DNA of 32,000 nucleotides from Methylorubrum extorquens. Lineage in GTDB: Bacteria; Pseudomonadota; Alphaproteobacteria; Rhizobiales; Beijerinckiaceae. The stretch spans positions 450,001 to 482,000 of the forward strand of contig LT962688.1 in the NCBI GenBank assembly GCA_900234795.1, read 5' to 3'. The position numbers and the translations under genes are program-made. This document shows positions 1,754 through 28,775 of this stretch, one piece after another. Below the pieces are notes generated by a model, which was not told where the DNA came from, searched no databases, and worked only from the letters and a program-made list of their open reading frames with translations. The first letter of the stretch is position 1. Every line of letters starts with the position of its first letter.

Positions 1754-2587
1754 TCAGCCTTTCCGGAACGCGGTGTGGATCAGGTCGTAGAGCCCGGTGA
1801 GACCCAAGCGGACCGCGCCGCCGGTGGCCTGGACCCCGGAACGAACAAGCCCGCCGGTGGGGGCGGGCTGCGGAGCAGGTGAGGGCGGTGGGGCTGTCAT
1901 CGGCGCCAGCGGATCCGGCGCCGGCTCGCCCATGCCCGGCGACCAGGGCGTGTCCTTGATCTTCGACCACTTGGCGAAGGCCGCGGCGAGCTTGGTGTGG
2001 TAGCCGTGCTTGGCGTAGCTCGCGCCGTTGTAGCCCTTCGCGAACCCGGCCCAATCGTGCCGGCGCAGCTCGTCGTCGAGACCGTTCGTGACGATGAAGC
2101 GGACCATCGCCGCCAGGTGCTCGGCCTCGCCGCCGTTGCAGAAGGCCAGCACCATCGCCTGCGGGGTCGCGTAGCCAGCCGCCTTGAAGTTCTCGCCCAG
2201 GATCTGCCCGAGGCCCCAGGAGGCAGCTTTCAGCGCGGCCGTCTCGTCGATGGCCAGGGCCTGCGCGAGGCGCGGATAGCTGTCGGACGGGTAGGCGCCG
2301 GGCTTCCACGCAGCATAGGCGAGGCCGAGCGAGGCGGCGCGGGTGCGGGCAGCGCCCGAGAGGTTGCGCCAGAAGACGTGCGGCTCGAACAGCATCTTCG
2401 GCCGCTTGAGCCGGTCGAAGCCGCCGCCGGAGGCCTCCACCTCCATCACGGCGTGGATCTCGTCCTCACCGACGCCGATGGTGTGGCCGATCCGGGGGAG
2501 GTCGTAATCCGAGAGCCGGAGGGCGGCGCAGACGAAGCCGGCGGCGCGCAGGCGTGCGAAGGCACCCGCGTCGGTGGACGAGGTCAT
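1754..2587 (-). CDS. Endolysin, N-acetylmuramidase family (PF11860-like) with Pro-rich linker and C-terminal tail
   Basis: The start is ATG 2587 (MTSSTDAG...), inside track ORF 1754..2920. Family hallmarks include EASGGGFDRLKRPKMLFEPHVFWR, AASWGLGQILGENFKAAGY and WAGFAKGYNGASYAKHGYHTKLAAAF. Confidence 0.85.
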   Translation of the reverse strand: MTSSTDAGAFARLRAAGFVCAALRLSDYDLPRIGHTIGVGEDEIHAVMEVEASGGGFDRLKRPKMLFEPHVFWRNLSGAARTRAASLGLAYAAWKPGAYPSDSYPRLAQALAIDETAALKAASWGLGQILGENFKAAGYATPQAMVLAFCNGGEAEHLAAMVRFIVTNGLDDELRRHDWAGFAKGYNGASYAKHGYHTKLAAAFAKWSKIKDTPWSPGMGEPAPDPLAPMTAPPPSPAPQPAPTGGLVRSGVQATGGAVRLGLTGLYDLIHTAFRKG

Positions 2588-2601
2588 GAGGCCGCTCCAG
2601 G

Positions 2602-2958
2602 TCAGAGAAGAGAGACGCGCACTCGGGCAAGCCCGCGATGCGTGATGCCGAGGGCGCGGGCCGCCCCAAGCGAGAGATCGATCAGCCGGCCGAGCCGGGG
2701 ATGTGGCCCGCGGTCGTTCACCCGCACATCGACGTGGCGGCCGGTAGAAAGGTCGGTGACGCGCACCGAAGTGCCGAGAGGCAGGGTCCAGTGCGCGGCG
2801 CCGAGAGCCTCGGGGACGAACCGCTTGCCGTCCGCGCGCCGAGAGCCGGACTCGTGCCCGTAGAAGGACGCGGTGCCGGTCCAGGTGGCGCGGGCCGGCG
2901 TCACGCTGAGCACGAGGCAAGCGAGAGCGGCCCGCACCGCGAGGCGTTGCAGGAGCAT
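2602..2958 (-). CDS. Exported RlpA-like double-psi beta-barrel (DPBB) protein
   Basis: 118 aa. A signal-peptide-like N-terminus ([24 protein letters not shown]) is followed by the DPBB signature ASFYG..G..ADGKRF......[32 protein letters not shown]...RLIDLS. Confidence 0.8.
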
Positions 2959-3081
2959 GGTGGGTCCGATTGTCGGAGGGGGCTCAAGGTCGATCAGAGA
3001 AGCGTGTGCTTGACGTCACACGCATGGACCGCGCTGCGAGCCTTCGGTCAGGTGAGTTGTCAGTCTCGCAAGCGACGCGGT

Positions 3082-4461
3082 ATGCCCGGCTCGTATAGGT
3101 CGAGCCCGAGTTTACTAATGTATGATAATGTGATTGCTGCGTGCGCTCGGTGGGAGACCGACTATATTGCCGAGTGGCTGATGTTCCACCGCAGCATCGG
3201 CTTTGATCACGTCTTCCTCTACTGCAATGACGAAGATCCGCGCGAGTTATATGAAGCCGTCCTGCCGTTTACGCAGGGCGATAGACCCTTCGTCACATTC
3301 AGGCACTTCGGCATCTTGGGCCAGCAAGGCCAAATGTATACGCACTTCCTGCGTAATTTTAAACATCTGAGCCGTAATTACATATTTCTCGATGTTGACG
3401 AATTTATTTTACTGCGCAACGACGACACGATCCGAGAGTTTATCTCACGCTTTCCGGGTGGAGTGGGGGCAATCCACCTGTTCTCCGTCAATGCTGGGCA
3501 TAACGGCCACGCCACGCGCCCGTCTGGGTCCGCAATCCGTAATTACACTCGACGGTCCGAATTGCCGGCGCCGTTCACGAAGTGCCTCGTCCGATCCGAC
3601 GCAGTTGACGACAACAAGATTGCCAGCGCGGTGGGCTCTGGATTTTGGCACCATGCCGATTGCATTCTGAAGGACGGAATGTTCACTTTAGATAGCCGTG
3701 GCGTCAGCATGCGCGGCTACTATCTGAACATCGAAGAAAATTTTCCCGAGAGGCTGGCGGACCCGACCTTCGCCAAGGGCGTACTCGACACCGGCTTCAT
3801 CTACCACATCGGCATCAAGTCACTGGCCGATTTTGCCAGGAGGGTGGAGAGAGGCGCGGTCGGAGACTTCTTCGTGCAAGAAGCCTGGACCGAGTACCAC
3901 CAGCGCGGGCCCGACTTCCTTGAGGAATTCCTCCGTCCATCCAACGTGGTCGAGGAGCTTCGCTTGGTCGAGATGGCCGATGCGACGCTCGCCCGTGCCT
4001 TTGCTCATCAAATCGCGGCGCCTCCAATCGGAACGAACATCGCCCTCGGGAAGCCGGCGACACAAAGCTCCATCAGCCCGTGGTCGCGCTTTCAGGATCT
4101 CGCGCAAGATGCGGCCGGCGCCGTGAGCGGGAAGCCTCGCGGCCTATGGAGCCACCATACGGACTATGAAGAGGCCCCATGGTGGCAGGTAGACCTTGGG
4201 GCCGTGATTGCCATCCGCGAGGTGCGGATCTTCAATCGCGTCGATGCCGTTCGATCCCGCCTTCGGGATTTCAAAATCCTTGGAAGCGAAGACGGAGAGA
4301 CGTGGACGCTACTTCACGCCAAGGACGACGGAACCGAGTTCGGGGGCGTGGATGGGCAGATGCACATCTGGGCACCCCCGAACCCGGCTCAGACACGCTA
4401 TGTCAGAGTCGTCCGGATCGGGGCCGGCGTGCTCGATCTGGATCAGGTCGAGGTGTACTGA
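3082..4461 (+). CDS. GT-A fold glycosyltransferase (Glyco_tranf_2_4/GT92-like) fused to a C-terminal F5/8 type C (discoidin/fucolectin-like) domain
   Basis: The start is ATG 3082 (alternative ATG 3118, MYDNV...). The part of the track ORF upstream of 3082 is antisense to the RlpA-like gene. N-terminal motifs are ETDYIAEWLMFHRSIGFDHVFLYCNDEDP and FLDVDEF. The C-terminal motifs NIALGKPATQSS...APWWQVDLG...IREVRIFNR are typical of discoidin/FTP lectin domains. It is the only convincing plus-strand gene. A sample stretch counts about 50% GC. Confidence 0.8.
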   Translation: MPGSYRSSPSLLMYDNVIAACARWETDYIAEWLMFHRSIGFDHVFLYCNDEDPRELYEAVLPFTQGDRPFVTFRHFGILGQQGQMYTHFLRNFKHLSRNYIFLDVDEFILLRNDDTIREFISRFPGGVGAIHLFSVNAGHNGHATRPSGSAIRNYTRRSELPAPFTKCLVRSDAVDDNKIASAVGSGFWHHADCILKDGMFTLDSRGVSMRGYYLNIEENFPERLADPTFAKGVLDTGFIYHIGIKSLADFARRVERGAVGDFFVQEAWTEYHQRGPDFLEEFLRPSNVVEELRLVEMADATLARAFAHQIAAPPIGTNIALGKPATQSSISPWSRFQDLAQDAAGAVSGKPRGLWSHHTDYEEAPWWQVDLGAVIAIREVRIFNRVDAVRSRLRDFKILGSEDGETWTLLHAKDDGTEFGGVDGQMHIWAPPNPAQTRYVRVVRIGAGVLDLDQVEVY

Positions 4462-4469
4462 GTCGCCCT

Positions 4470-6005
4470 TCAGCAGCGCGTGACGATGCCGTTCACGGTC
4501 TGAAAGTTCTGGGTGGGTGGCCCAGAGCACGACACGCCGATGGCGTTGTTCGCGCTGAACGAATTTGCGGAAACGATGCCGTTGAAGGTGGCGTCGCCCG
4601 TGGCACCGATCCGCGCGACATGAGCGCCCGGATCAGTGCCAGGAGCGAACAGCCATGCGTTCGGCCCGCCGCTATAGCTCATGCACATGGCCGCCCCGTT
4701 GTAGCAGACCTGCTGGCCGCCTTTGAAAAGGGCTGCAAACGGAAGCGCGTCCTGCGTGAAGTCGAGACCGATACGATGCTTGCCGGCCGCTGTCAGAATT
4801 GAGCGCGCCGAATCGCCCATGTAGAAGTCGTGGTCCTGGATATACGTGCCGTCAGCGCTGTCCTGAAAGAACAGGCCAGTGTGCGCCATTGCGCTATAGC
4901 CCTTGAACTCCAACGGGGTCGCACTGTTGCCGATCGGATAATCGGCGGTACAAGTCGTTGTAGTGCAGTCAACGCGAAACGTTTGCCCGCCGTATGACAT
5001 TCGGGTGATGAGTTGGGAAAACGTACCGCTCGATTTGGTGAGTGTGGCACCAGAAACCGTTGCGGTCCCACTGTATGACTGCGTGTGCGGATTTGCCATG
5101 TAGTGAACGGCAAGGTTCGGGAATGCATTGATGCCCCCGTAAAAGAACCACGCCGAGGTGCAGTTTTCTCCGACCTTACAGTCCGCGTTGAAGTTGCTTA
5201 GATCCAACTCCATTCCGAACGATTTCGTATTTCCACTGCCGGGCGCGATGACGTGATCCGTGTTGATGGACCAGAAGGCCGGCGGCGACTGCCCCGCGGG
5301 ACCTGGGCGCTGCTGCGATGTGATCATCAAGCCGGTCGCGTTCGGGCTCTCGGCGTCTGATGGATGCGCGGCCGAGACAGTCCCGCCAACAACATCAATG
5401 TTAAAAAAACCGCTGCTCGTCTGCTTCGGCATCGAGCCGTCAGCTTTGGTCTGAACGAGCAGGTTCGCCGTGTTGTTGTTGGTCGTCGTCGGCGTCCCGG
5501 CTTCCGGGTTGGGGGGATATAGGCCGTTGGAAGACGGCGTTCCTCTCGTCGGGTAGATCGTAATGCCGGACTTGTCGGCAGACATAAACGCGCCGAAGCA
5601 TGTCGGCACCCACGTCGCCAGCCCGTTGCCCGTCCAGTTGCCTGCCGTCGTCGGACAGGCCGTGGGTACGGCGTTCACGACGGACCCTGTGAAGGCAGGA
5701 CTGGCCAGAGGAGCGCGTTCAGCGATCAGCCGCGCCAGCGTCCCCGATGCGGCAGACGCGCTCGGCGTCAGGCTGATACCAGAGCCATCGCCACTCCACC
5801 GAATGACCTTCGCCGTACCGTCGAGGCACCCTAGCGGCACCATTGTCTTGCCGGTGCGCTCGCGCATCGCCAACTGCGGGCACGCACCGGAGGCCTGGAG
5901 CCCGATCTCGGGCAGCGTGAAGGTCTGAGCGGAAACGGGCGCGAAGACAGACGAAGAGGCCAGCGTCGCGAGCGCGATCAGGCCGAAGCGCAAAGAGCGG
6001 AGCAT
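4470..6005 (-). CDS. Exported Cys-rich fibre-like protein (511 aa from ATG 6005)
   Basis: It has a Sec-type N-terminus (MLRSLRFGLIALATLASSSVFAPVSAQT). A GAAGG Shine-Dalgarno lies 9 nt upstream of ATG 6005, while the track start at 6020 is a GTG. It carries the tail-fibre-like motif APLASPAFTGS, is Ser/Thr/Asn/Gly rich, and has 12 Cys in the mature part. Confidence 0.7.
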   Translation of the reverse strand: MLRSLRFGLIALATLASSSVFAPVSAQTFTLPEIGLQASGACPQLAMRERTGKTMVPLGCLDGTAKVIRWSGDGSGISLTPSASAASGTLARLIAERAPLASPAFTGSVVNAVPTACPTTAGNWTGNGLATWVPTCFGAFMSADKSGITIYPTRGTPSSNGLYPPNPEAGTPTTTNNNTANLLVQTKADGSMPKQTSSGFFNIDVVGGTVSAAHPSDAESPNATGLMITSQQRPGPAGQSPPAFWSINTDHVIAPGSGNTKSFGMELDLSNFNADCKVGENCTSAWFFYGGINAFPNLAVHYMANPHTQSYSGTATVSGATLTKSSGTFSQLITRMSYGGQTFRVDCTTTTCTADYPIGNSATPLEFKGYSAMAHTGLFFQDSADGTYIQDHDFYMGDSARSILTAAGKHRIGLDFTQDALPFAALFKGGQQVCYNGAAMCMSYSGGPNAWLFAPGTDPGAHVARIGATGDATFNGIVSANSFSANNAIGVSCSGPPTQNFQTVNGIVTRC

Positions 6006-6016
6006 GTGAAGGGCCT

Positions 6017-6376
6017 TCACTTCGGTTGGAGCGCGGCGGCGGTGAGCAGATCCGAAATCTGCACAACGTTCAAATTAAGCGTGTCCCGCACGAAGGCGAG
6101 GAGAGCGCAATCCGGCGTAATGAATGCCGTGGTGCGGTAGGCCCGATTCACGGCGTCGCCGGGATCGGAGGGCACGGCGTCTTGGACAATCGCGGACGCG
6201 CCCGGACGCAACGCCTCGAGGGCCGCGAAGAACTGGCCCGCGGTCACTTGCCCGTCGGTGCCGCCGCCCCCAACGACGTCGAGGGTCACCGCTGTGCCCT
6301 GACGGCCGACCCGCACTGAGCCGGAGGGGGACCGGACGTCGATCGGGAACGTTGGGCGGATCGGATAGCTCGGCAT
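6017..6376 (-). CDS. Small fibre-region protein (119 aa) sharing a 73-aa module with the C-terminus of the 325-aa protein at 15997-16974
   Basis: A GGAGG Shine-Dalgarno lies upstream of ATG 6376, and the stop is 11 nt before the next start. Residues 47-119 align without gaps to residues 253-325 of the 15997..16974 product, at 32/73 identical by hand count. Confidence 0.6.
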   Translation of the reverse strand: MPSYPIRPTFPIDVRSPSGSVRVGRQGTAVTLDVVGGGGTDGQVTAGQFFAALEALRPGASAIVQDAVPSDPGDAVNRAYRTTAFITPDCALLAFVRDTLNLNVVQISDLLTAAALQPK

Positions 6377-6388
6377 GGCGGGGCCTCC

Positions 6389-6775
6389 TCAGGCGAATTC
6401 GACCGGCTCGCAGAAGACCTCTTCCGTCTCCGGGCCGATGGTGACGAGGACTCGCGTGTCGTAGATGCCGGGGCGGAGATCAGTCAGCGAGCCCGCCGGG
6501 AACACGGCCTCAACGATGCCGGGGTTCGAGACGACGAGCGTTCCGGATGCGAGCGATGCGGCGAGAACCGGCGCCGGATCCTGTCTTGACCAGCAGCCTC
6601 GATGCGGCGCCCGGGGCGTCACCTCGAGCGCGACCTCGGAGCAGGTCGAAAAGTCGATTAGGCCCTCGTCCGTCGGGTCGAGCCGGCCACGGGCATCGGC
6701 GGCCCGGAAGACGTGCCGGAAGCGCCACTGGCCCCGTCGGGAGACCGCGCCGAGCGTGTTCATGAAGGACGGCAT
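6389..6775 (-). CDS. Hypothetical fibre-region protein (128 aa)
   Basis: It is tightly packed, with a 5-nt gap to the upstream gene and a 12-nt gap to the downstream gene. GC3 is high. I recognise no family. Confidence 0.55.
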   Translation of the reverse strand: MPSFMNTLGAVSRRGQWRFRHVFRAADARGRLDPTDEGLIDFSTCSEVALEVTPRAPHRGCWSRQDPAPVLAASLASGTLVVSNPGIVEAVFPAGSLTDLRPGIYDTRVLVTIGPETEEVFCEPVEFA

Positions 6776-6780
6776 CGGCG

Positions 6781-8007
6781 TCAGAGCTTCAGGTAAAAGG
6801 TGCCGAGCCGGGTCGGCGGAAGGTTCGAGAACGACAGCCCGCCGCCGGGGTTCGTGATGTCGAACCCGAACACCTTCGCGTTCGGGGGCGCGGTGTTGGC
6901 GTTGCTGAGGCCCTGCTGCAGGTTAGGCACCGTCACCGCACCCGTAGAGGCCGACAGCGAGGCGGCGGCGAGCGTCTCGTGCGTGATGTAGCTGTGCGCC
7001 GGATAGTCGACGGTGACGGACCCACCAGGCAGCGCCGCCGGCAGGTTCTTGTTCGCCAGCCCCGAGAAGGCATCGCCACCGATCGCGCCCGGCATCTGTG
7101 CGTCGCCGAGCACGGAGAACCGCGCCCCTGAGACCGTCCCCGTCGAGCCGGCCGCGGCGGGCTGCGAGAGCGTGATCGTGGTGCCGTTGATGTCCGCGAT
7201 CGTGGTGCCGGCCGAAATTCCGGTTGCGGTCACCACCATGCCCACGATGAGGCGGGCGGAGCTGAAGACGGTCGCCGTGGTCGAGCCGGCGGAGAGCGTC
7301 ATATCCGTGATGGTCTGGACCCGACCGGCCGGGCTCGAACCCATGTCGTCGAGGCCACCCTGCAACAGCCCCTGCATCGTCGGGATGACGATCTGCTTGC
7401 CGGCGGAGAAGTCGCTCGAGGCCGAGGTGCCGCGCCCGCCGACCACGGATGCCACCGTGTCGGGGAACGTGTTCCATAGGTAGGCGAAGGCCGCAGCGGC
7501 GGAGGCGGAAGCGAGCTCCGTCGCGCCCGACCCGGCACCGCCGAGCGTCCGGCCGTTCATCCGCACCCAGCCCGGCATGATCCCGGCGTCCATGCGCCAC
7601 TTCACATCACCGGTCGCGGCGATGGCGGTCGGATCGACCGTGCCACCACCGCCCCCACCGCCGGCAGTCGGCGGCACGTAGCCGAGACCGTCATCGAACC
7701 AGAGCAGGTTGCCGTAGGGGCCGGTCACCTGTTCGGCGTAGAGCGCGGACGGCAGGTAGATCCGCGGGAATCGGCCGGTTCCGTCCGCCTTGACCGGCTG
7801 GGCGAGCGGCTTGGTCAGAGCGGGGTCGGAGTAGACCGCGAGCGGCGTCGTGGTCCCGGCCGCGAAGAACGCGACGCTCGGCACGAGCAGGGGCCGGCCC
7901 GATGCGTCGAGGATCTGCTGACGCGACTTCGGCCACGACTCGGCGGCCGAGGCAGCCGAGATCAGGCCGAGCGCGAGAGCGAGCCCGGCGGCGAACGATC
8001 GATGCAT
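6781..8007 (-). CDS. Tail-collar-domain fibre-like protein with Sec-type signal peptide (408 aa)
   Basis: The N-terminus is MHRSFAAGLALALGLISAASAAE (n-, h- and AxA regions). It is followed by a tailspike-type N-terminal motif (VAFFAAGTTTPLAVYSDPALTKPLAQPVKADGTGRFPRIY), a Gly7 hinge, and a collar-like segment GDVKWR...PGWVRMNGRTL...AFAYLW. Confidence 0.75.
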   Translation of the reverse strand: MHRSFAAGLALALGLISAASAAESWPKSRQQILDASGRPLLVPSVAFFAAGTTTPLAVYSDPALTKPLAQPVKADGTGRFPRIYLPSALYAEQVTGPYGNLLWFDDGLGYVPPTAGGGGGGGTVDPTAIAATGDVKWRMDAGIMPGWVRMNGRTLGGAGSGATELASASAAAAFAYLWNTFPDTVASVVGGRGTSASSDFSAGKQIVIPTMQGLLQGGLDDMGSSPAGRVQTITDMTLSAGSTTATVFSSARLIVGMVVTATGISAGTTIADINGTTITLSQPAAAGSTGTVSGARFSVLGDAQMPGAIGGDAFSGLANKNLPAALPGGSVTVDYPAHSYITHETLAAASLSASTGAVTVPNLQQGLSNANTAPPNAKVFGFDITNPGGGLSFSNLPPTRLGTFYLKL

Positions 8008-8028
8008 GTGGGGGAGCCTGAAACGACG

Positions 8029-8052
8029 AAGCCCCGCACGGGGGCGGGGCTT
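8029..8052 (-). terminator. GC-rich hairpin 22 nt upstream of the 8007 start (terminator-like)
   Basis: The stem pairs AAGCCCCGC with GCGGGGCTT around a 6-nt loop. On the minus strand it is followed by CGUCGUUUC, which is only moderately U-rich. Confidence 0.4.
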
Positions 8053-8097
8053 GGTCAGGGCCAGCGCGTAAGGCGCGGCACAATGATCAAATCGCGG

Positions 8098-8120
8098 GTT
8101 TTGCCCGACGGGTCAAGGGG
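8098..8120 (-). promoter_or_regulatory. 23-bp dyad motif, copy A (GTTTTGCCCGACGGGTCAAGGGG)
   Basis: It is 22/23 identical to 21505-21527, and the only difference is the central base of the dyad. Read on the minus strand it contains TTGACC within TTGACCCG-N-CGGGCAA. It lies in the 330-bp gap ahead of the fibre-like gene block. Confidence 0.45.
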
Positions 8121-8161
8121 CGATGGCTGGCACCGCGGCAAGGGCATGCTACCGTGGCGCT

Positions 8162-8521
8162 ATGCCCTCGTCTCGGACCATCTGGTGCCTCGCGCAGATC
8201 GCGTTCATCGCGGCGCTAACCTACGGCATGTCGGTGCCGCCCGAGGGTAACCCCGCGCCGATCAACCCGGCGCAGGTCATGGTGAGCTTCGGCGTCTCGG
8301 TGATCATGGCGGCGTTCTTTACCGCCCTGGCCACACGGCTATGGGACCGCGCGCACCTTAAGCTGAAGGGGTCCGCCGCCCTCTCGCTCGCCACCGCCAG
8401 CGCCACGCGCGCCGAGCACCACGAGGCGGTTCAGGAGCGCGATGGTGTCGGCGCCCGGCTTGGCGTTCGCGAGATCCGCAAGACGCCGTCCTCCCTCTGG
8501 CGTGGTCAGCAGCGCGGCTAA
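8162..8521 (+). CDS. Possible small two-TM protein, overlapping the 3' end of the 1093-aa gene (doubtful)
   Basis: From ATG 8162 the sequence reads MPSSRTIWCLAQIAFIAALTYGM...VMVSFGVSVIMAAFFTALATRLW, two good hydrophobic helices with high GC3. The last roughly 60 codons overlap the convergent minus-strand gene and look like shadow sequence. Confidence 0.2.
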   Translation: MPSSRTIWCLAQIAFIAALTYGMSVPPEGNPAPINPAQVMVSFGVSVIMAAFFTALATRLWDRAHLKLKGSAALSLATASATRAEHHEAVQERDGVGARLGVREIRKTPSSLWRGQQRG

Positions 8522-11500
8522 GCGGTCGACGTTCCGGCCCGCCTGCCAGTCCTCGAACGCCTGCGCGATCCGCTTCGGCAGGTTGAAGCCGCCGGTGGCC
8601 GCCGCCTTGCCGGCCTCGGCGCCAACGCTCCCCTTCTTCATCTCCGCCAGCGCCTCGGTATTGAACGAGGTGCGCGAGCCGACACCCTGGCGGGTACCAG
8701 TGGCCTCGAAGATGTCCAGCAGGCGGGAGAACCCGGCCGCCAGCCGCTCGCCATCGGGCAGGGCGCGGATCGCGGCGAAGACGTTCTCACCGGCCAGATC
8801 GTTGCCGCGGATGAAGGCCTGGAACTTGGCCCCGCCGGCTTGATTAGGGCCGCTCTGGAGATCCTTGGTTTTCGCCGCGAACTCGGTTCCGAGATAGGTC
8901 CGGACGAGCTCGCGCGCGGCCAGCGAGTTGCTCCGCGAGATCGTGCCGACGGCGGCCCCGACATCGGCCGCGGAGCCCTCGACAGGCTTGATCGGGAACA
9001 GCGTGTCGATCGCGGCCTTCACGTCCGGTCGCTCGGCGATCCGGCCCAGCGGCGAGCGTTCCACCGCCTCGCGACCCTGATGGGCGAGGGCGAGGCGCTG
9101 AAGACGGGAACGAGCCTCCGGGATCTGGGCGAGCAGGTCCTCGTTCTGGCGCATCGCGGCACGGATGCCGTCGGCGGTCAGCGGGCCGCTGCCGCTCACG
9201 CCATCGAGGATGCGCGTCACCTCGCGCGCCTCGAAGGCGTTGCGAGCCGCGGGCGTGGCGTTGGCCAGGAACTCGCGGGCGGCGGTCGCCCCTTCGAGAT
9301 GGGTCGGCACCTGCTCCGACGGCGTCTCCATCCGGCGGGTCAGCGGATCGCGTTGCGTCACTCGGGCAAGCGGAGCGTTACCGGCGAACGGTTCGAGGGG
9401 CCGGCTGTTGGCAGCGAAGTTCGCGTCCGCAGTGGCCACTTCGGGCGCGGCCTTCAGCTGCTCGTCGAGCGACCGGCGCACGGCCTGAAGGTCGCGCACC
9501 TTCGTGCCGTCGCCGTCGGCCTGCGCGCGGGCGATGCGCTGGTCAAGCCGTTCGCGGGCATGCAGCAGTCCCTCGATCGACAGATCGGTCTCACGGACGC
9601 CCGACACCGGGTCGGTGCCATATTCCATGAAGTCGCGACGCACCTGCTCCAGCTCGGTCCGGACGTCACCCTTGGCCGTGCGCGCCTGCCGGTCGATCGC
9701 GTCTAGAGCGGCCTGCGGGTTCACCTGCCCGAAGCGCGGCGCGGAGATCTCCTCCGTGACCGTCGTCGGCACCATGCGGGAGGAGGGGCCGCTCGCGGGC
9801 TCTTTCGAGGCCATCACGACGCGCTCATAAGCGCTGAGCGGGTCGGACTCGTCACCGCGCATCAGGGCCGCGGCCGCCCGGTCGAGCGTGCCCTTGTCCA
9901 CCGTTTTGGGATCGACGCCTGCCTCGGTCAGCGCGCGGCGAATGTCGGTTGTCGCCTGGCTGGCGGAGGCCTGGAACTCGTCGCGCATCGCGCCGAACCC
10001 GGACCGGTCATCGTGACCCTGCCAGTCCCACGGATAGGTGCGGCGTCCGCGGGCTTCCTGCTCTAGGAGGCCGATCAGCTCGTCATGGATATTGCGCTCC
10101 ATCCCACCGCCGACGTCGGGCGGCAGGTAGCCCTCTTCGATCAGGCGGGTGCGCCAGAAATTATCGATCCCCTTGCCGTTCTCCTGCACGAGGTTGGCGA
10201 CGCCGGGCTGCCGGAAGCGGTCGAGCCCGGCCGCCTTCACGTCCCCGCGCTCAAGACCGATGCCGCCATTCTCGGCGATGAAGCGGGCGAGCGACTTCGT
10301 GCCCGGCTGTAGGGCGGGCGCCTCCGGTCGCGTCGGCGCCATCGAGCCGATGGTGTCCGGCCCGCGCGGCGGCGGGTCGTAGCGCAGAGGGCCGCCAGCG
10401 CCGTTGTCGAGCGTCTGGAGCATCGGCTCGCCGGGCCGCTCCACGGTCACCGTGCGGTCGATGCCGATGCGCTCCTCGGCAGCGCGGGCGGCGGCATAGT
10501 CGCGGGCCGCCTGTTCGGAGCGCGCCGTCTCGCGGGCATCGGCGACACCGCGCATCTCGCGCTGGATCACCTGCCCGGCCTGATCGGGAGAGACCCGCGG
10601 GCCGGCGCCCTGCGTCGCGCGGATCACCGCCTGCCCCTCGGGTGTGGCGGCCACAGCGTTGCGGGCCGCGGCCTGGACCGCCTCGCCGGTGCGGGAAGAG
10701 GAGGGCGAGGCCGGCGCAATGGCATCGAGACCCGCCTGTCCGGCAGCATCGATCTGGCCGGGGCGGGCGGCGAAGAACTCGGAAAGCCCACCCTGTCCTT
10801 CAACGACGCGCTGGAGATCGCCGAGACGACGCGGGCCGACGACCTGCTGCAGCGCCTCCGCCCAGGTCAGGGCGACACCCCGGCCCGCCGCGTCATCCAT
10901 GAGCGAGCGAACCGCCGTGACCTCGTCCGTCGAGATCTTGCCGGCCGCGGCATCGAACAGGCGCTCGGCCGTGCCGGGGCGGCGCGTGAAGGCCTGCGCG
11001 GCGCCGCCGGCCACACCGCCGACGAGGCGGGCGACAGGCTCGGCCGCGGTGCCCTCCGTGATCTGCCCCGCCGTCTCGGAAGCGACGGCCGGCAGAAGAG
11101 CGTTGCGCGCCGCCGTGGCGACGCTCTTACCCGCGCCCGGCACGAACTCGGCGACCGTGCGCGCGAACTTGCCCGGCGTGGTCTGGGGCTCGTAGAGCTT
11201 GCCGGTCGCCGCCTCGAGCGCGCTGATCGCGGACTGGCCCGGCATCGGCAGTTCGGACGGCGATGGAAGTCCGCCCTTCACCGCCGCGCGGGCCTCCGCA
11301 GCTTCCGCTTCCGGCAGTGGTGCCTTGCCGGCCAGAGCGCGGGCACCCTTGGCCACCTTGTCGGTCAGGTAGCCGATGCCGGCCTCGGTCAGCCCGAGGA
11401 CCGTCTGCGGCAGGTCCGGCAGTCCGGCGGCGCCACGGATGATACCGGCGCCGGCCGACTGAACGACATCGCCGACCACCGACGGGGCGTCCGCCGCGGG

Positions 11501-15996: not shown

Positions 15997-16974
15997 CTAC
16001 TCCGTCACCGATCGCGCGGCGGCGATGATCGCGGCGAGTTGGGCGTCCGTCAGGCCGAGCGTCGTCTTCACGAACTGCGCGAGGACGCCGGACTGCGTCA
16101 CGAACTGGGCGTGGGCGAATGCGATGTTGATCGCGTCGCCTCGGTCGGACGGCACGGCATCGGTGACCGTCGCGACACGGCCTGCGGCAGAGTTCTCCAG
16201 CGCGCGAAAGAACTGCCCGCGGGTCGGCGCGTAGAGCTTCGTGGGCGTGATCGCTGCGTCTCGGATCCCGAGGGCTCCGAGCGCTGGCCGGAACAGAACG
16301 GCGTCGATGCCGACGTATTGAGCCGTTGATGCCTCTGCGAGGATGAATGCCAATCGGCCGTAGGTGCAGCCTGCCGGAGGTGTTGCAGGCAGGCTGATCT
16401 CATTCCAAGCGCCCGCAATCGGCCCGTTGTCGAGCAGGTTGGACGCTGTAACGTATGTGTCGGTCCTGTCGTACCAGAAGGCCTGGACGGTGAAGCCGGA
16501 GGTGGTCGTGCCGGCCATCGGGGCCACGTAGAACCCGAGCCCGTGCAGAGCCAAAGGCGTGACGTCCATGCGCGGCCCGAGAGCTGCGACTGCGCTACTC
16601 GTGGTCGCCGTCGCCTTGCTGAGCAGAAGCGACGTTGTTCCGGCATATGAAGCGTCAGTGAAGGCAGAAATCGAACTGCCAGCGCCAACCGCGTTGAGCA
16701 GGCTCCACCCGACCGGCAGGCCGCCCGCAACATCCTCCATGTCCCCGTTGGGGCAGAGGTTGGCCGCCATCGAGCCGATGTTGAGCTTTGACGGGCGGAC
16801 CCGCCCAGCAGCGTCGCCCAAGACGCGGGCTGCGATCGCAGCCGGAACGCTCTGCTGCACGCCGCCGGTCGGCGTGACGGTCATCGCGCCGGCATCGCAC
16901 GCAATCTGGTCCGTGGCCCCGACAAGCCCGAAGCTGCCACCCGCGAGCCGCCGGAGCGCTTTGACGATAGCCAT
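15997..16974 (-). CDS. Fibre/receptor-binding-like protein with CBM-like central domain and shared C-terminal module (325 aa)
   Basis: The segment NLCPNGDMEDVAGGLPVGWSL resembles the opening strand of CBM4_9/galactose-binding-like domains. The C-terminal 73 aa are paralogous to the 6017..6376 product. Confidence 0.7.
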   Translation of the reverse strand: MAIVKALRRLAGGSFGLVGATDQIACDAGAMTVTPTGGVQQSVPAAIAARVLGDAAGRVRPSKLNIGSMAANLCPNGDMEDVAGGLPVGWSLLNAVGAGSSISAFTDASYAGTTSLLLSKATATTSSAVAALGPRMDVTPLALHGLGFYVAPMAGTTTSGFTVQAFWYDRTDTYVTASNLLDNGPIAGAWNEISLPATPPAGCTYGRLAFILAEASTAQYVGIDAVLFRPALGALGIRDAAITPTKLYAPTRGQFFRALENSAAGRVATVTDAVPSDRGDAINIAFAHAQFVTQSGVLAQFVKTTLGLTDAQLAAIIAAARSVTE

Positions 16975-19166: not shown

Positions 19167-20403
19167 TTAGCCGCTGACGCGGGTGCCGAGGCGCGGGTCG
19201 ATGGCGGCCACGCCGTACAACACGTCCAGGCGCCACGAGGACACGCGGTTCGGGCCGTCGAAGTAGGGCACGAGCATGACGTGGATGCCCTTGTAGTCCT
19301 GCGTGCCGATCTGGTCGGTCGGCACACCGGCCGGCTTCTCGAAGGGCACGCACACCAGCGCCAGCGCGTTCCGGTGGAACATGAGGTTCTGCTGGAAGGT
19401 GGACGAGGCCGCGCCGTTCCACGTGACCACCGCGCCGGCAGCCGGAGCAGCCGAGACGGTCTGGTAGGCGCCCGTGGTGATGATCGCCGGGGCGATCTGC
19501 ACGGCCGCGTTGCCGGTGCCGTCTGCGGTGGCCGCGGCGGTGGCGACGAACTGCTGGAGGTAGGGCAGGACCTGCTTCGTCACCGGGTTGACGGCGAAGA
19601 CACCCGCGATGCTGAACACCTCGCCCGCGCGGACCGTGGCGGCCGCACCGAGGCCCGCCATGTTGAGGGTCTGGCCCCAGGAGTTCGCTTGCGCGCCGGA
19701 GTAGGTCACCGCCTGACCGGCGCCGTTCACGGTGCCGTTGGTGCGGGTGCCCGTGGTCAGCGTCGGGGCGTTCTGGGTCATGAACGGCTCGACGCCGGCG
19801 AGTCCGCCGAGCTTCGCCTTGCGGTAGGCGTCGGTGTTGGCGCCGTCGATGTAGAGCTGCGCCTGGTTGCCGAGCAGGGCCACATGATCGGCCGGCGACA
19901 GGGCGGCGGAGCGCTCGTCGGACGGAACGGCCATCTCGTTGAGACGCTGCACGCCCGCGAGGAACTTGCCGTAGTTCGAGATGGTGTTGCCCGGGGTGCC
20001 GACCCAGTTCCAGAAGTTCTGCAGAGCGCAGGAGTGGATGTCCTGGTCGATCTGGTTGGCGATCGGCACCATGGCCGGCTTGATCACCCGCTCGGCAAGA
20101 TCGCCGATCTTGAGGGCGAGATCGGTCGAGGAAAATTGGGAAGTCGACGCCGGCCACCTTGTTGACGGTGATCGCGGTCTTGCCCTCGATCACGTCCTGG
20201 TTGGACGCGACGAGGCCGGTGCGGACGCGGAACTGCGCCGGCTTCCGGATCGAGACCGTGTCACCGACCTTGTAGCCGTTGACGTTCTTCGAGAACTCGT
20301 CCTCGTAGCCGCGGAAGACGCGGGAGCCCATTCCGAGCTCGTTGTCGAGGATCTTCACCGCCGCCTTGGCGATGATATTTGCGGTGTTCAGATCGTTGGG
20401 CAC
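19167..20403 (-). pseudogene. Major capsid protein, P22-coat family (PF11651-like), interrupted by a +1 frameshift near 20132-20135
   Basis: The N-terminal 90 or so codons come from track ORF 18919..20403 (GTG 20403 with GAAGGA Shine-Dalgarno: MPNDLNTANIIAKAAVKILDNELGMGSRVFRGYEDEFSK...TVSIRKPAQF). The remainder is in the frame of ORF 19167..20087, which reads STDLALKIGDLAERVIKPAMVPIANQIDQD... upstream of its first Met. Removing one T from the T4 run joins the two parts as VDFPISSTDLAL. Confidence 0.8.
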
Positions 20404-22602: not shown

Positions 22603-22637
22603 TAGCGCACCAACGCTTATGCTTTTGCGATGCCCCG

Positions 22638-25174: not shown

Positions 25175-27514
25175 TCATGCGGGCGGGCCCATCATCTCGG
25201 GCGCGGGCTGACCAAGCGCGCCGGGGTCAAAAGAAAAGGCGCCCGGAGGCGCCTCGATGAAGTCGGTGGGGAGCGCTATGGGCGGCGGCTCCGGTTCGGC
25301 AGGCGGCGCCGGCAGCGGCGCGGCTGCCATCTCTTCCATGATCATCGAGACCACTTCGGAGAGCTGCGCGACGGCGGCGACGATCGCGTCGAGGCGCGGG
25401 TCGGCGGCGGGCGCGGTGCCTTCCATGCCGGGCATCTGCGGGCGGTTGGCCTCCATCACGCGTGCCTCGGCTTCGATCTGCGCCTTCTCGATCTCGGCCT
25501 GGATCTTCATCACGTCGGCCTGGAGCTTCTCGCGCTCCACGGCGAGCTTTTCCATGTCGAGCTGCTGGCGCCCGGCCTCGATCTGCTGCTGGCGCTCCTG
25601 CTGCGCCATGGCAGCCTGTTCCTGCGGCGAAGGTGGGACCGGCGGCGGCGGCGCCTCGCCGCTCTCCTCGGCCTCCTGCGCCTGGATCTGAGGCGGCAGC
25701 ATGGTGCGGATGCGCTTGGCGATCTTGTCCGCCATCGGCCAATCCTGCGCCTTGGCCAGCAGGTCGAGAACGAGGGGCGCAAGCTGCGGCGCGGCCTGCA
25801 CCAACTGGATCATGCCGTCGAGCGCAGCCTCGCGCCGGGTCGTGTAGCTCGGGCCCATCTCCATCGCGACATCGTAGGCGCCGACCGTGACGTCGTTCTG
25901 GATCTTGTCGAGCGGCTGCCCGTCCTCGGCGAGGCCGCCCACCTGGTTGATCTCGACGAGGTCAACCTTGCCGTCCTCGCCCACGATCCGAAGCGTCCGA
26001 GCGGTGTCGTAGACGTGTGGGATCATCCCGCAGACGATCGCGCCCGTGTGCCGGATGCTGCGCGAGAAGTTCACGATGTAGACGAACGAACCGACGTCGC
26101 CCTCGCGCTGGCGAGCCTGGATCGCCTTGCCCGAGGTCTCGTTCGAGCGGGCGCCAAGCGAGGCGTCATAGACGCCAGTGACCGCCTTCATGTCCTCGGC
26201 CGCCTCGCGGGTCAGCTCGGCGAGGCCGGCGGAGGCGATGGGCGGGGTCGAGCGCTCCGGCCGCGCTGTCGGCGACTTCTCATCGACATTGTAGGGCAGG
26301 AAGGGGTGGTTCGTGCTGTTGGCCGTGTCCCAGATCGACTCGTAGCCCTTGAACATCTTCTCGGTGCCGAGGAACGGCGCCTTGGGCTGGAGCGCTACCA
26401 CCTCCGTCTGGGTCGAGCGGGCATAGTTGTAGGCGCGTTGCGCATCCTTCGCGAACCGGATCACGCCGCGACGGGCGCGGCGCTTGCCGATCGTCATCTC
26501 GACGCCGACGACCGGCACCACCGGGATGAAGCGGCCGGGGATCTCGGTCGGACCGTCAAGCACGGCGTTCGCGCTGATGACGTAGCGCTCGACACGGTGG
26601 CCGGGGCGCTTCTCCACCCGCACCCGAGCGCCCTCCGCCTTGGCCGCCTCGACCAGCGCCATCTTCTCGGCGTGGTCCTCGGCCGCTTCGTCGGTCAGGT
26701 CCAGGATCTCGCCGTCGGGCATCAGGGCGAGCTTCTTCTGGACGGGCGTCTTGGTGTAATACTCGGCGATCCGCACCATGTCGGTGCCCGCCCACTCGGC
26801 CATGCCAGCGGCCGACAACTCGCTGTCGCCGATCTCGGCGGCCGGGTGATCCGGATAGGTCTCCTCGTAGACGTCCCGGCTCATATCGACGGGAACGAAG
26901 CAGAACTTGGCGTCCTCGCGCGTCGGCAGCACCGCATCCGGGTCCCAGCGGACACCGACACCGTCGGGCACGCCGACGATGCGGATCTCTTGCTCAAACG
27001 TCGTGTCGGAGCCGTATTCTGTGATGACCTTCCAGTGCCCGATGCCGGCACCGACCTGCTGATCCGCCGCCGCGAAGTAGGCCGAGGGCGCGTCCGAGCG
27101 GTTCTCGACGTATCGCACCATGCCGGCGATGACGTCCGCGGTCTCAGGGTCGCCGCGGCTATCCACCGGCACGACCTTGATGGCCGGACGCATCTGGCGA
27201 ATGTCACCGGTGATCTGGGCGATGGTGGTCGGCAACCGGTTGAATTCCAGGCACGGTCGGCCCTCGTCCTCGCGCGCTTGCTTCTCCCGCGCGGGCCACT
27301 GCGCGCCAGGGGTCTCGAGAAAGTCGAGGTCCTCGTAGGCGTCCGTGCGGTTCTGGCGGTCGAACTCATCGGCGCGGCGCCACCGCTTTTTAGCGAGGTC
27401 GAGCACCTTCGCGAAGTCGTCGCCCTTGGTCTCGGTCGACGCCTTCGCCGAAGCCTCGGTCACATCCGGGTCCGTCGCGTCCGCCAGCGCGGCGCGCTTG
27501 GTCTTTCTGGCCAT
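25175..27514 (-). CDS. Portal protein, P22-like, with long C-terminal coiled-coil (barrel-type) extension (779 aa)
   Basis: The start is ATG 27514, 4 nt after the TerL stop; the track ORF extends upstream in Arg/Ser-rich sequence. Blocks recalled from P22 gp1 match: LDFLETPGAQWP, MRPAIKVVPVD..ADVIAGMVRY, GAGIGHWKVITEY, IAEYYTK and GRFIPVVPVVGVE. The C-terminus is Gln/Glu/Ala-rich and helical. Confidence 0.9.
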   Translation of the reverse strand: MARKTKRAALADATDPDVTEASAKASTETKGDDFAKVLDLAKKRWRRADEFDRQNRTDAYEDLDFLETPGAQWPAREKQAREDEGRPCLEFNRLPTTIAQITGDIRQMRPAIKVVPVDSRGDPETADVIAGMVRYVENRSDAPSAYFAAADQQVGAGIGHWKVITEYGSDTTFEQEIRIVGVPDGVGVRWDPDAVLPTREDAKFCFVPVDMSRDVYEETYPDHPAAEIGDSELSAAGMAEWAGTDMVRIAEYYTKTPVQKKLALMPDGEILDLTDEAAEDHAEKMALVEAAKAEGARVRVEKRPGHRVERYVISANAVLDGPTEIPGRFIPVVPVVGVEMTIGKRRARRGVIRFAKDAQRAYNYARSTQTEVVALQPKAPFLGTEKMFKGYESIWDTANSTNHPFLPYNVDEKSPTARPERSTPPIASAGLAELTREAAEDMKAVTGVYDASLGARSNETSGKAIQARQREGDVGSFVYIVNFSRSIRHTGAIVCGMIPHVYDTARTLRIVGEDGKVDLVEINQVGGLAEDGQPLDKIQNDVTVGAYDVAMEMGPSYTTRREAALDGMIQLVQAAPQLAPLVLDLLAKAQDWPMADKIAKRIRTMLPPQIQAQEAEESGEAPPPPVPPSPQEQAAMAQQERQQQIEAGRQQLDMEKLAVEREKLQADVMKIQAEIEKAQIEAEARVMEANRPQMPGMEGTAPAADPRLDAIVAAVAQLSEVVSMIMEEMAAAPLPAPPAEPEPPPIALPTDFIEAPPGAFSFDPGALGQPAPEMMGPPA

Positions 27515-27518
27515 CGTA

Positions 27519-28775
27519 TCAGGCACCCATCCAGCCGCCGCGGCGACGGCCGCTCGCGCTGCCGATCTTGAGCGGGGCCGTCGGCTCCTGGAGCGCAACC
27601 GCGAGGTAGCGGAAGGCATCGGCGCCGTGGCTGGCCCAATCGTGCAGCGGGTTCTTCGAAAACTGACCCGTGTTCGGGTCGACGTCGTACCGGTAGTTTC
27701 TGAGGCACTGCAGTCCGTCGGAGCAGGCGTCAGCATCGAACCAGCAGCGCGAGAACAGCGTGCGGGCAGCGTTGATGCCCTCGGCGACGCCGAGCTTCGG
27801 CGTGATGTGAACCTTGAAGCCTGCGGCCTCCATCTGCTGCGCGATCGTCCGCTCGGAGCCCAGCAGCTCGTTGGTCGCGTCGTGCGGCAACCAGTGGTCG
27901 CCGTAGACGTAGGGCCGGCCCTGGAGGTGCTTCAGGTAGTGCCCGAGCGCGTGGCCGCGGTTCTGGTAATAGTCGATGATCCGGAACTCGAAGCCGACGA
28001 CCTGCGCGAACCAGATCGCGGTCATGTCGGCCCGGCCGAGATCCCAGAACGTGTGCACCGGCTTGGTGCCGTCGTAGGGCACGCGGGTGAAGCGGCTGGC
28101 CTCCGTCGCGGCCATGATCTCGTTGGCGTAGATCGCGCCGTCGAGCACCACCTTGCAGTGGCCGTCCCAAACCGTGAGGTAGGCCGCTGGATCGCGCGCC
28201 TTCAGGTCGAGCGCCTCCTGCTTCAGGACGTCCGGGAACCAGGGGTTGTCCTGCCAGCCGATCTTCACGACCTTGGCGCCGGTCGGCGGGTTCTTCACAA
28301 ACCGCTTATAGGTCTCGTCTTCCTCCAACTCCGGGTTGAAGCTGATCCAGATCTCCGACCCTTCCTTGCGGATGGTGGGAATCAGCACGTCCCAGGAGGT
28401 TTTCGAGACGGTGCGGGCCTCCTCGACCCAGCACACGTCGATGCCTTCGGTCGATTTCACTGAGGCGACGTTGTGCCGGAGCCCCTTGAAGATGAACTCG
28501 GTCCCGTTGGCGCCGAGGATGCGCTTCTCTTGGATCTCGTAGAAACCGGAGAGGCCGAGGAGGTCGATCTGCTGGCTGAGCAGCGCGTGCGCCGATTCCG
28601 CAATCGAATTCTGGAACTCGCGGGCGCAGAGCACGCGGATCTTCCGCTGCGCGCCCATGATGAGGAGTGCCCGCCCGAAGCCCCACGACTTCGCGCCGCC
28701 ACGCCCCCCGTAAGCGATCTTGTAGCGGGCGGGCTCGAAGAGGAAGTCGAGCCGCTCCGGGAACTCAACTGTCAT
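27519..28775 (-). CDS. terL: Terminase large subunit, PBSX family
   Basis: There is a Walker A-like YGGRGGAKSW, then VLCAREFQNSI and DVCWVEEA (Walker B). Nuclease-domain blocks include FWDLGRADMTAIWF, HDA and HGADAFRY. Confidence 0.95.
   Translation of the reverse strand: MTVEFPERLDFLFEPARYKIAYGGRGGAKSWGFGRALLIMGAQRKIRVLCAREFQNSIAESAHALLSQQIDLLGLSGFYEIQEKRILGANGTEFIFKGLRHNVASVKSTEGIDVCWVEEARTVSKTSWDVLIPTIRKEGSEIWISFNPELEEDETYKRFVKNPPTGAKVVKIGWQDNPWFPDVLKQEALDLKARDPAAYLTVWDGHCKVVLDGAIYANEIMAATEASRFTRVPYDGTKPVHTFWDLGRADMTAIWFAQVVGFEFRIIDYYQNRGHALGHYLKHLQGRPYVYGDHWLPHDATNELLGSERTIAQQMEAAGFKVHITPKLGVAEGINAARTLFSRCWFDADACSDGLQCLRNYRYDVDPNTGQFSKNPLHDWASHGADAFRYLAVALQEPTAPLKIGSASGRRRGGWMGA

Follow-up and report, generated by a model that had tools for sequence, protein, structure and literature searches.

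Predicted Sec signal peptides on two proteins of the tail-fibre module of a P22-like prophage in Methylorubrum extorquens

The assembly of tailed phages is taught as a process that takes place in the cytoplasm. The nearest counterparts of the genes considered here are the receptor-binding proteins of P22-like and cyanobacterial podophages; the tailspikes P22 gp9, Sf6 gp14 and Pam1 gp17, the Pan3 tail spike and the gp16-gp18 module of Pam5 are all encoded past the ejection proteins and before the lysis genes, and in the known P22 and Pam tailspikes the head-binding domain extends from residue 2-3 of the chain. Here, we analyze a stretch of 32,000 nucleotides (nt) of Methylorubrum extorquens (LT962688.1), hereafter called the window, whose positions serve as coordinates throughout. 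Within it, between the ejection-protein genes and the lysis cassette of a P22-like prophage, lies a block of four minus-strand genes (8007..4470). We conclude that this block is the receptor-binding (tail-fibre) module of the prophage and that, by fold, by sequence and by synteny, it is a fibre module of the P22/Pam type; its unusual part is the Sec-type precursor form of two of its proteins, a tail fibre that we call fibre1 and a Cys-rich protein that we call p516.

The block begins with fibre1 (8007..6781, 408 amino acids [aa]), which is followed by p128 (6775..6389, 128 aa), p119 (6376..6017, 119 aa) and finally p516, whose reading frame ends at 4470 and starts either at an ATG at 6005 (511 aa; the p511 form) or at a GTG at 6020 (516 aa). 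This GTG overlaps the stop codon of the preceding p119 gene as GTGA. The gaps between the genes are of 5, 12 and 11 nt, in agreement with the tight packing described in a first-pass annotation that had been made from the letters of the sequence. The prophage itself reads on the minus strand, from the head end, as a terminase (28775..27519), a portal protein (27736..25175), a low-GC insertion, a scaffold protein and the major head protein (20087..19167); then come several small tail proteins, p325, p510, a DNA-ejection protein, a 697-aa protein bearing a transglycosylase and a 1093-aa protein. Distal to these are the block, a plus-strand glycosyltransferase gene and the lysis cassette, which comprises an RlpA-like protein, a muramidase and membrane proteins. 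PHROG assigns the terminase, portal, scaffold, major head and DNA-ejection proteins in the window, and the p510 homologue of a related locus (L003) has a match to PF11134 (Phage_stabilise). Besides the block, no second candidate for a receptor-binding gene was found in the window. The GC content of fibre1 is ~70%, that of the neighbouring phage genes also ~70%, that of p516 61.7% and that of the glycosyltransferase gene 58.0%. Both fibre1 and p516 have 100% identity to M. extorquens proteins that are labelled "exported protein of unknown function", and a scan of viral contigs recovered only prophages of the same kind.

The product of the first gene, fibre1 (6781..8007, minus strand), comprises a signal peptide, a head-binding domain (approximately residues 22-110; 7678-7944), a collar-like region (approximately residues 117-237) and a distal domain, and has no Cys. 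Its likeness to the P22, Sf6, Pam1 and Pan3 tailspikes lies in the head-binding domain and emerges both from the fold and from the sequence profile. In a Foldseek search with the AlphaFold2 model (predicted local distance difference test, pLDDT, 77.6), residues ~25-110 superposed on the Pan3 structure 9vyg_m with 37% identity and a root-mean-square deviation of 0.8 Å over 79 columns (E 4e-6); the same model matched Pam1 (7eeq_A, E 1.8e-4) and the N-domains of the P22 and Sf6 tailspikes (E ~3e-3 to 1e-2, probability 1.00). A profile of the fibre1 family, run against the PDB sequences, found the Pan3 tail spike (E 2.4e-20) and the Pam1 "tailspike head-binding domain" (E 7.8e-17), the alignment beginning at residue 2-3 of the solved chains. 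Judged by model and profile together, the N-terminal domain of fibre1 is a tailspike head-binding domain of the Pan3/Pam1/P22 type. The collar likeness is seen in a match to PHROG 8763 "tail protein" (E 6e-29), in "tail collar" models of BFVD and in the tblastn alignment of a distant relative (P0077) to Bordetella phage collar proteins, and the motif GDVKWR..PGWVRMNGRTL, which the first-pass annotation had read as collar-like, is present. Against Pfam, fibre1 had no match at E <=0.01, and PF07484 (tail collar) was seen only in another distant relative (P0087). In a tblastn search of 50,697 phage records, neither fibre1 nor p516 had a match; of the relatives only P0077 reached Pam5, whose tail fiber it resembles at 35% identity over residues 37-340. 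We collected 33 loci, from Hyphomicrobiales and from some metagenome bins; in these, an ejection-protein homologue is usually followed, a few kb further on, by the homologue of fibre1.

What distinguishes the fibre1 of the window from the known P22 and Pam tailspikes is that a 21-residue signal peptide precedes the head-binding domain. In the signal-less homologues and in the solved chains this domain is N-terminal, which in the window protein is the case only once the signal peptide has been removed. All the signal-peptide calls reported here were made with a rule of our own that combines hydropathy (the highest 12-residue value in the first 35 aa), charge and an AxA site. The predicted signal peptide of fibre1 (7945..8007, minus strand; residues 1-21, MHRSFAAGLALALGLISAASA) is encoded by the start codon and a 60-nt in-frame insertion, and it reads MHR-SFAAGLALALGLISA-ASA/AES, where the slash, here and below, marks the predicted cut; it has a basic n-region, an uncharged h-region and small residues at -3 and -1. 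The leaders of fibre1 and p516, as read from the sequence, have neither a lipobox Cys at +1 nor a twin arginine. The hydropathy values of fibre1 (2.41), p516 (1.87) and the RlpA-like lysis protein (2.40) compare with values of at most 1.5 in each of the window's 14 head, tail and ejection proteins. Among 25 window proteins, these three, an open reading frame (ORF) in the gap upstream of the block (8162..8521) and the lysis membrane protein lys118 are the only ones with a hydrophobic N-terminus.

The start-region DNA was compared between two sets of five loci, one with the signal and one lacking it. A hairpin, a spacer and the ATG are common to all ten, and the sole difference is a clean 60-nt insertion right after the ATG, so that the window protein begins M-HRSFAAGLALALGLISAASA-AESWPKSRQQ and the signal-less proteins begin M-TISWPLSRQQ. 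The predicted cut at ASA/AES coincides with the boundary of this insertion, and cleavage there would put a Trp at residue 4, exactly as in the signal-less forms if their start Met is removed; removal of the start Met is expected before Thr. A leader is present in ~24 of the 88 fibre1 cluster representatives and absent from ~57, the remaining ~7 being fragments, and hydropathy separates the two groups cleanly (at least 2.06 with a leader, at most 1.57 without). Leaders were found in two distant clades. In the Bradyrhizobium-like one the same rule gives AHA/AGTIPGFSL and AFG/AGSIQLSLSQQFD, as against M-AGSISLSLSQQFD in the signal-less members. One relative (P0013) is 80% identical to the window fibre1 and has no leader, so the gain or loss is recent. 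By these alignments, the fibre1 leader has been gained or lost both recently and repeatedly, with the predicted mature N-terminus always preserved, and this pattern is what a cleaved signal on a protein with a docking-constrained N-terminus would look like. Downstream starts that would remove the hydrophobic N-termini, a possibility raised in the first-pass annotation, were sought in the sequence, and no ATG, GTG or TTG that would skip the signals lies near either predicted cleavage site. The Sec-type leaders that had been read on fibre1 and p516 thus withstood closer scrutiny; they have the hydropathy, the basic n-region and the AxA site, are conserved across divergent homologues, and look real and selected.

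In its gene order the block is closest to Pam5, where ejection-like genes are followed by two small opposite-strand genes, a fibre, the 111-aa gp17, an anchored spike and the lysis genes. The second gene of the block, p128 (6389..6775, minus strand), stands directly after fibre1 in every related locus and occupies the position of Pam5 gp17, which is annotated as a beta-sandwich "receptor-binding protein"; p128 has no Pfam or PHROG match. It is at the spike that the two modules differ. The Pam5 spike is one anchored protein, whereas in the window the anchor (119 aa) and the signal-bearing body are encoded by two genes. The p119 N-terminus (MPSYPIRPTFPIDV...) matches that of a 520-aa signal-less, full-length spike in the third position of locus L001, and an N-terminus resembling it is found in L010 and L012 as well. 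Because its N-terminus is shared with the full-length L001 spike, p119 looks like a spike anchor minus the body. Its C-terminal module of ~65 aa (residues 45-107) has 49% identity (E 2e-14) to residues 251-313 of the tail-region protein p325 (15997-16974, minus strand), and a C-module of the p119 type can also be made out in the products of the short third genes of two distant loci, L015 and L033. A p119-type adaptor was seen in nine independent loci (the window, L003, L005, L009, L011, L013, L050, L015 and L033), and in each of them it is followed by a gene for a signal-bearing protein of at least 450 aa; the seven loci that belong to the Methylobacterium group share the QTFTLPEIGLQ N-domain in that protein. 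That the C-terminal module of p325 might offer p516 a second docking site was considered and dropped; L009 has a p119 and a p516-like gene and no detectable p325 homologue. We also observed that Pam5 (L048) itself encodes, right after its spike (9005-9810, plus strand), two proteins, gp19 (155 aa) and gp20 (109 aa), with signal-peptide-like N-termini and several Cys. Exported proteins that end a fibre module would thus not be confined to the Methylobacterium prophages.

The gene order, the head-binding domain of fibre1, the Pam5-like arrangement and the absence from the window of any rival receptor-binding gene are the grounds for the virion identity of the block. The first-pass annotation had proposed that its products were receptor-binding-protein paralogs rather than virion parts. 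Neither half of that proposal is supported. The head-binding domain, the P22-like tailspike position, the Pam5 gene order and a gene fusion described below all speak for virion parts, and no other receptor-binding gene was found in the window; moreover, the ~57 of 88 fibre1 relatives already mentioned are signal-less.

The last gene of the block, p516 (4470..6005, minus strand), encodes a predicted signal peptide (residues 1-26, 5928-6005; MLRSLR-FGLIALATLASSSVFA-PVSA/QTF, with the cut at VSA/QTF), a conserved N-domain, the fibre motif APLASPAFTG, noted in the first-pass annotation as APLASPAFTGS and present, and a Cys-rich central and C-terminal region. The 12 Cys that had been counted in it prove to be six sequential, co-varying pairs (42/60, 117/136, 276/282, 347/352, 434/441 and 493/511). 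In the alignment of p516, 60 cells contain both Cys of a pair, 19 contain neither and 5 contain one alone, and such co-variation is consistent with extracytoplasmic folding. The 14 word-indexed homologues all have a leader that ends in AxA/Q, and most of them continue with the conserved N-domain (QTFTLPEIGLQNSGACPQLAVRERTGKTMVPLGC) and then with differing distal modules. A profile search of 1.84 billion representatives retrieved 220 p516-related clusters at E <=0.001; among 49 representatives inspected from 150 listed, 38 pass the strict signal rule and the other 11 are mostly signal-like or truncated, with approximately two clearly signal-less. A fusion is present in L008, where a fibre1 with a signal (86% identity over residues 1-367) runs directly into a module homologous to residues 377-442 of p516 (hidden Markov model E 8e-15), and this fused module contains the nearly invariant p516 Cys pair. 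This argues that p516-type modules serve as distal parts of virion fibres, and it shows that a signal and paired Cys can coexist in a fibre that has a head-binding domain. Modelling and Foldseek comparison of both proteins, which had been suggested along with the first-pass annotation, gave tailspike N-domains for fibre1; for p516 the AlphaFold2 model, built from a 14-sequence alignment, had a pLDDT of 47 and found nothing at E <=0.001. The p516 profile had no match among the PDB sequences, and there was no usable Pfam, PHROG or NCBIfam match for p516 and its relatives, only two of the latter hitting a PHROG "tail protein". Genes of the p516 superfamily also occur beyond the fibre operons, past the lysis genes beside a glycosyltransferase gene (L005/L006, L050) and beside an integrase (L004).

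Exported proteins are familiar in other phages. The filamentous-phage proteins pIII and pVIII are virion components with cleavable signal peptides and periplasmic disulfides; these phages, however, assemble by extrusion through the membrane, whereas the prophage of the window is tailed, is released by lysis and has a capsid filled in the cytoplasm. Among the tailed phages, late proteins that use the host Sec system include the signal-anchor-release (SAR) endolysins such as P1 Lyz and the T4 antiholin RI (PMC8385771). They are like fibre1 and p516 in their N-terminal signals, in belonging to lytic growth and in an action coupled to holin-triggered membrane events, but they are lysis factors and not virion or receptor-binding proteins. 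The lysis cassette of the window likewise opens with a signal-bearing protein, the RlpA-like one. A different parallel to p516 is provided by the mosaic adhesive trimer (MAT) fibres of Bdellovibrio, in all 21 of which the signal peptide is followed directly by a conserved domain of ~130 aa (PMC10769870). They share with p516 a signal peptide, a conserved N-domain, phage-fibre-like segments and swapped distal modules, a likeness that is architectural only; MATs are chromosomally encoded and sit on the predator's surface, whereas the gene of p516 follows that of a virion-anchor protein within the tail-fibre operon of a prophage. An S74 domain was not found. A full-text literature search, whose coverage did not extend to most subscription journals, turned up no description of a Sec signal on the fibres or spikes of tailed phages.

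To account for this combination of features, we tentatively put forward a reading to which we would give a little less than an even chance, namely, that fibre1 and p516 are exported by Sec, processed and added to the particles after the holin has breached the inner membrane. Late in infection the Sec system of the host would translocate both proteins, and signal peptidase I would cut them at ASA/AES and VSA/QTF. The first of these cuts would give fibre1 the N-terminus of its signal-less, tail-fitting orthologues, and the disulfides of p516 would form in the periplasm. Only when the holin breached the inner membrane would the two proteins reach the otherwise finished, fibre-less particles, fibre1 docking via its head-binding domain and p516 via the p119 adaptor. 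By the gene order, p128 and p119 correspond to the middle protein and the spike-anchor segment of the Pam5 arrangement, and the spike body is encoded by a gene of its own, p516. P22 tailspikes can dock on tail-less heads in vitro, and this is the closest precedent for a late addition of fibres. A more general form of the proposal, which we advance with somewhat greater reserve, is that a whole P22-like lineage of the Hyphomicrobiales may build its particles in two compartments. The capsid and tail hub would be made in the cytoplasm, the fibres would be exported by Sec, cut and oxidised, docking would follow the action of the holin, and the 60-nt cassette would switch the route that fibre1 takes.

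Several observations weigh against this proposal. The signal peptides are predictions from our own hydropathy, charge and AxA rule, and export, cleavage and virion composition are deduced from sequence data. Neither p128 nor p119 has a signal peptide, so that proteins presumed to be partners would come from different compartments. The majority of the fibre1 orthologues function with no signal, and two loci (L011 and L013) pair a signal-less fibre1 with a signal-bearing p516-like protein; since this combination exists, the export of fibre1 is not required by the module. The same two loci break the pairing between a signal on fibre1 and a signal on the product of the last gene, which we had expected and have abandoned. 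The members of the p516 family that lie outside the fibre operons indicate that the family can encode exported proteins that are not virion components, and the fold of p516 is not modelled confidently. Nor did we find in the literature a precedent for the post-lysis addition of periplasmic fibres in tailed phages.

If the proposal is true, however, its consequences would be considerable. A routine export of receptor-binding proteins would add periplasmic maturation and attachment at lysis to the ways in which tailed phages are built, and would explain how phages come to use disulfide-stabilised fibres. The host Sec system, signal peptidase and Dsb would become determinants of phage infectivity, and engineered fibres of this kind would need export signals at their expression. 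Annotation would also be affected, inasmuch as such genes now carry the label "exported protein of unknown function". The system lends itself to experiment, with a genetically tractable methylotroph as host and natural fibre1 variants, with and without the signal, that are 80% identical.

The alternative that fares best, although we regard it as unlikely, accepts the export and denies the docking. On this account p516, and perhaps the signal-bearing fibre1, would be made late and exported but never become bound to a particle, acting instead as a free periplasmic or released enzyme or lectin that strips or blocks the receptor glycan on the dying cell and on neighbouring cells and thereby lets the progeny spread without being trapped. 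Such a role would suit a superfamily that is essentially always signal-bearing and disulfide-rich and that has members outside the virion operons, as it would suit the signal-less state of p128 and p119, the GC content of p516 (61.7% vs 70% in the core fibre genes) and the signal-bearing ORFs directly after the spike gene of the isolated phage Pam5. It is more difficult to reconcile with the strict pairing of p516 with p119, an adaptor with a virion anchor at its N-terminus, or with the conserved N-domain and swapped distal modules that are typical of anchored receptor-binding proteins. The L008 fusion, moreover, joins a module of the p516 type to a fibre with a head-binding domain, and no enzymatic domain is detectable in p516 by Pfam, profile or Foldseek searches.

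A second alternative, improbable in our judgment, denies the export itself. The hydrophobic N-termini would not drive translocation, folding and assembly would be cytoplasmic, and the segment would be tolerated, removed in some other way, or membrane-active or tethering. Signal-less orthologues are indeed the majority in the fibre1 family, Ala- and Leu-rich segments arise easily in DNA of 70% GC, and fast-folding trimeric fibres are poor Sec substrates. But the succession of n-region, h-region and AxA site has been kept despite sequence drift in two fibre1 clades and in the whole p516 superfamily, and the predicted cut falls exactly at the insertion boundary, where it restores the native length of the N-terminus. 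The paired, co-varying Cys residues argue for oxidative folding, and in the solved virions, where the head-binding domain starts at residue 2-3, there is no obvious room for 20 extra hydrophobic residues.

The least probable alternative is the one advanced in the first-pass annotation, in which the exported fibre-like proteins are not virion parts and the lysogen expresses them together with the glycosyltransferase so as to hide or alter its own receptor (superinfection exclusion) or to affect neighbouring cells. In its favour are the adjacency of genes for exported p516-superfamily proteins and for GT92/discoidin proteins in the window, in L005/L006 and in L050, all of low GC, the terminator-like hairpin ahead of the block and the O-antigen-modifying genes that P22-like phages carry. 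Against it stand the head-binding domain of fibre1 in a window without any other receptor-binding gene, a spacing of the four genes tight enough for translational coupling, in line with late structural genes, and the location of the glycosyltransferase gene on the other strand and hence in a separate transcription unit. PADLOC had no match for any of the proteins queried (the glycosyltransferase, fibre1, p516, the FG-GAP protein of the window and the product of the small membrane-protein ORF), and that ORF (8162..8521) is itself a more conventional candidate for exclusion. A promoter scan of 2500-8600 also counts against it in that no promoter-like site was found, the consensus used being that of sigma-70 only, which is uninformative for M. 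extorquens. Of the surface-remodelling idea there remains the recurrent adjacency of p516-superfamily and glycosyltransferase genes in the relatives; its application to the block, which is a virion fibre module, is not supported.

The glycosyltransferase gene (plus strand, 3118..4461) converges on p516. The two stop codons (TGA at 4459-4461 and TCA at 4470-4472) are separated by the 8 bp GTCGCCCT, and no terminator-like site was found between them, just as the first-pass annotation had described. Its characterisation of the product as a GT-A/discoidin fusion of much lower GC has likewise held up. The glycosyltransferase part, of the GT92/GT2_4 type, exceeds the Pfam cut-offs for PF13704 (39.8 vs 27.5 bits) and PF01697 (28.1 vs 23) and has a DxD motif (FLDVDEF); the F5/8 type C (discoidin) part, residues 338-444, exceeds those for PF00754 (63.9 vs 28.2) and PF22633 (55.9 vs 27.8). 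The protein has no signal peptide. Its true start is probably M13 at 3118 (447 aa), which is the start called in identical contigs, 3082 being an in-frame upstream ATG. More than 383 homologues share this architecture, and they are mostly chromosomal and alphaproteobacterial. In the relatives the corresponding slot holds a Hint_2 gene (L003) or is empty (L010). On the evidence of its low GC, its own strand and this variable slot, the gene is foreign prophage cargo (a moron), and it probably alters a surface glycan in the lysogen.

A homologue of this glycosyltransferase with 44-49% identity is found past the lysis cassette in L005/L006 and L050, directly downstream of a gene for a 521-aa signal-bearing protein of the p516 superfamily that has no adaptor-type N-domain; both genes are of 55-58% GC. 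Because the adjacency recurs in the window, in L005/L006 and in L050, a link between the exported fibre-like protein and the glycosyltransferase is plausible, and the recurrence is, among the sequence data, the best evidence that the two may act on the same glycan. These post-lysis pairs lie in low-GC islands (L005 14104-17239, L006 6781-9916, L050 10696-13572), and that of L005 is followed by ABC2-membrane, methyltransferase and GT61 genes, which may form a glycan-conversion island. In having low-GC, opposite-strand cargo beside receptor-binding genes and a small membrane-protein ORF, the window resembles phages with gtrABC, Sf6 oac or P22 sieA cargo. Gtr is, however, a membrane system, whereas the glycosyltransferase of the window is a soluble GT92/GT2_4-discoidin fusion, and no homology to gtr, oac or sieA was found.

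The gap between fibre1 and the 1093-aa gene measures 331 bp (8008-8338). The first-pass annotation had placed in it a hairpin and a repeated dyad motif, and of these the hairpin is substantiated and the dyad is not, the repeats being weak (73-80%). The terminator-like hairpin (8025..8056, minus strand) has arms of 13 nt (8025-8037/8044-8056) that are 92% complementary, has a T-rich tail and ends 17 nt before the fibre1 ATG. In every relative, whether its fibre1 is signal-bearing or signal-less, a hairpin lies 10-20 nt before the fibre1 start; since the stem sequences differ in L011 and L001 and the position is kept, selection for the hairpin structure is suggested. The gap also holds the small membrane-protein ORF (plus strand, 8162..8521, with an alternative start at 8123), for which two membrane helices are predicted and whose third-position GC (GC3) is 0.92. 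It shares sequence with the 3' end of the 1093-aa gene and is also called as a gene in identical contigs. At the same spot and in the same orientation, L003 and L005 have 78-aa two-helix ORFs and L001 has a lipoprotein ORF. Its place between the ejection and fibre genes is also that of P22 sieA, and by this analogy the ORF is a candidate exclusion gene, more conventional than the block.

Some further features of the window and of the related loci deserve mention. The RlpA-like protein (2602..2958, minus strand) is the first of the lysis cassette and has a signal peptide and a double-psi beta-barrel (DPBB) domain (PF03330, E 2.4e-18; TIGR00413 rlpA, 89.2 bits vs a cut-off of 82.15). A PF11860 muramidase comes after it. 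An exported RlpA-like lytic transglycosylase is, to our knowledge, unusual as a phage lysis component. At the boundary of the portal and scaffold genes, the low-GC insertion (21570-24779, minus strand, 46-58% GC) is foreign cargo amid the head genes; it contains the gene of a 713-aa FG-GAP-repeat protein (53.7% GC; PF13517, E 6.8e-22) and two ORFs whose PHROG matches, to transposase or DNA-binding proteins, are weak. A compact element in Methylobacterium sp. Leaf94 (L001, 2230-15056), found also in L002, comprises an integrase, AAA_24 and PD-(D/E)XK genes, a truncated ejection-protein homologue, a fibre module and a lysis cassette, with no head genes in view; it could be a prophage remnant or a satellite-like element with fibres of its own. 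Finally, a 283-aa protein of the fibre module in L036 (12636-13487, plus strand) has a twin-arginine (Tat-like) leader, RRGFLAGAAALAA, with the motif RRGFLAG, which would represent a different export route.

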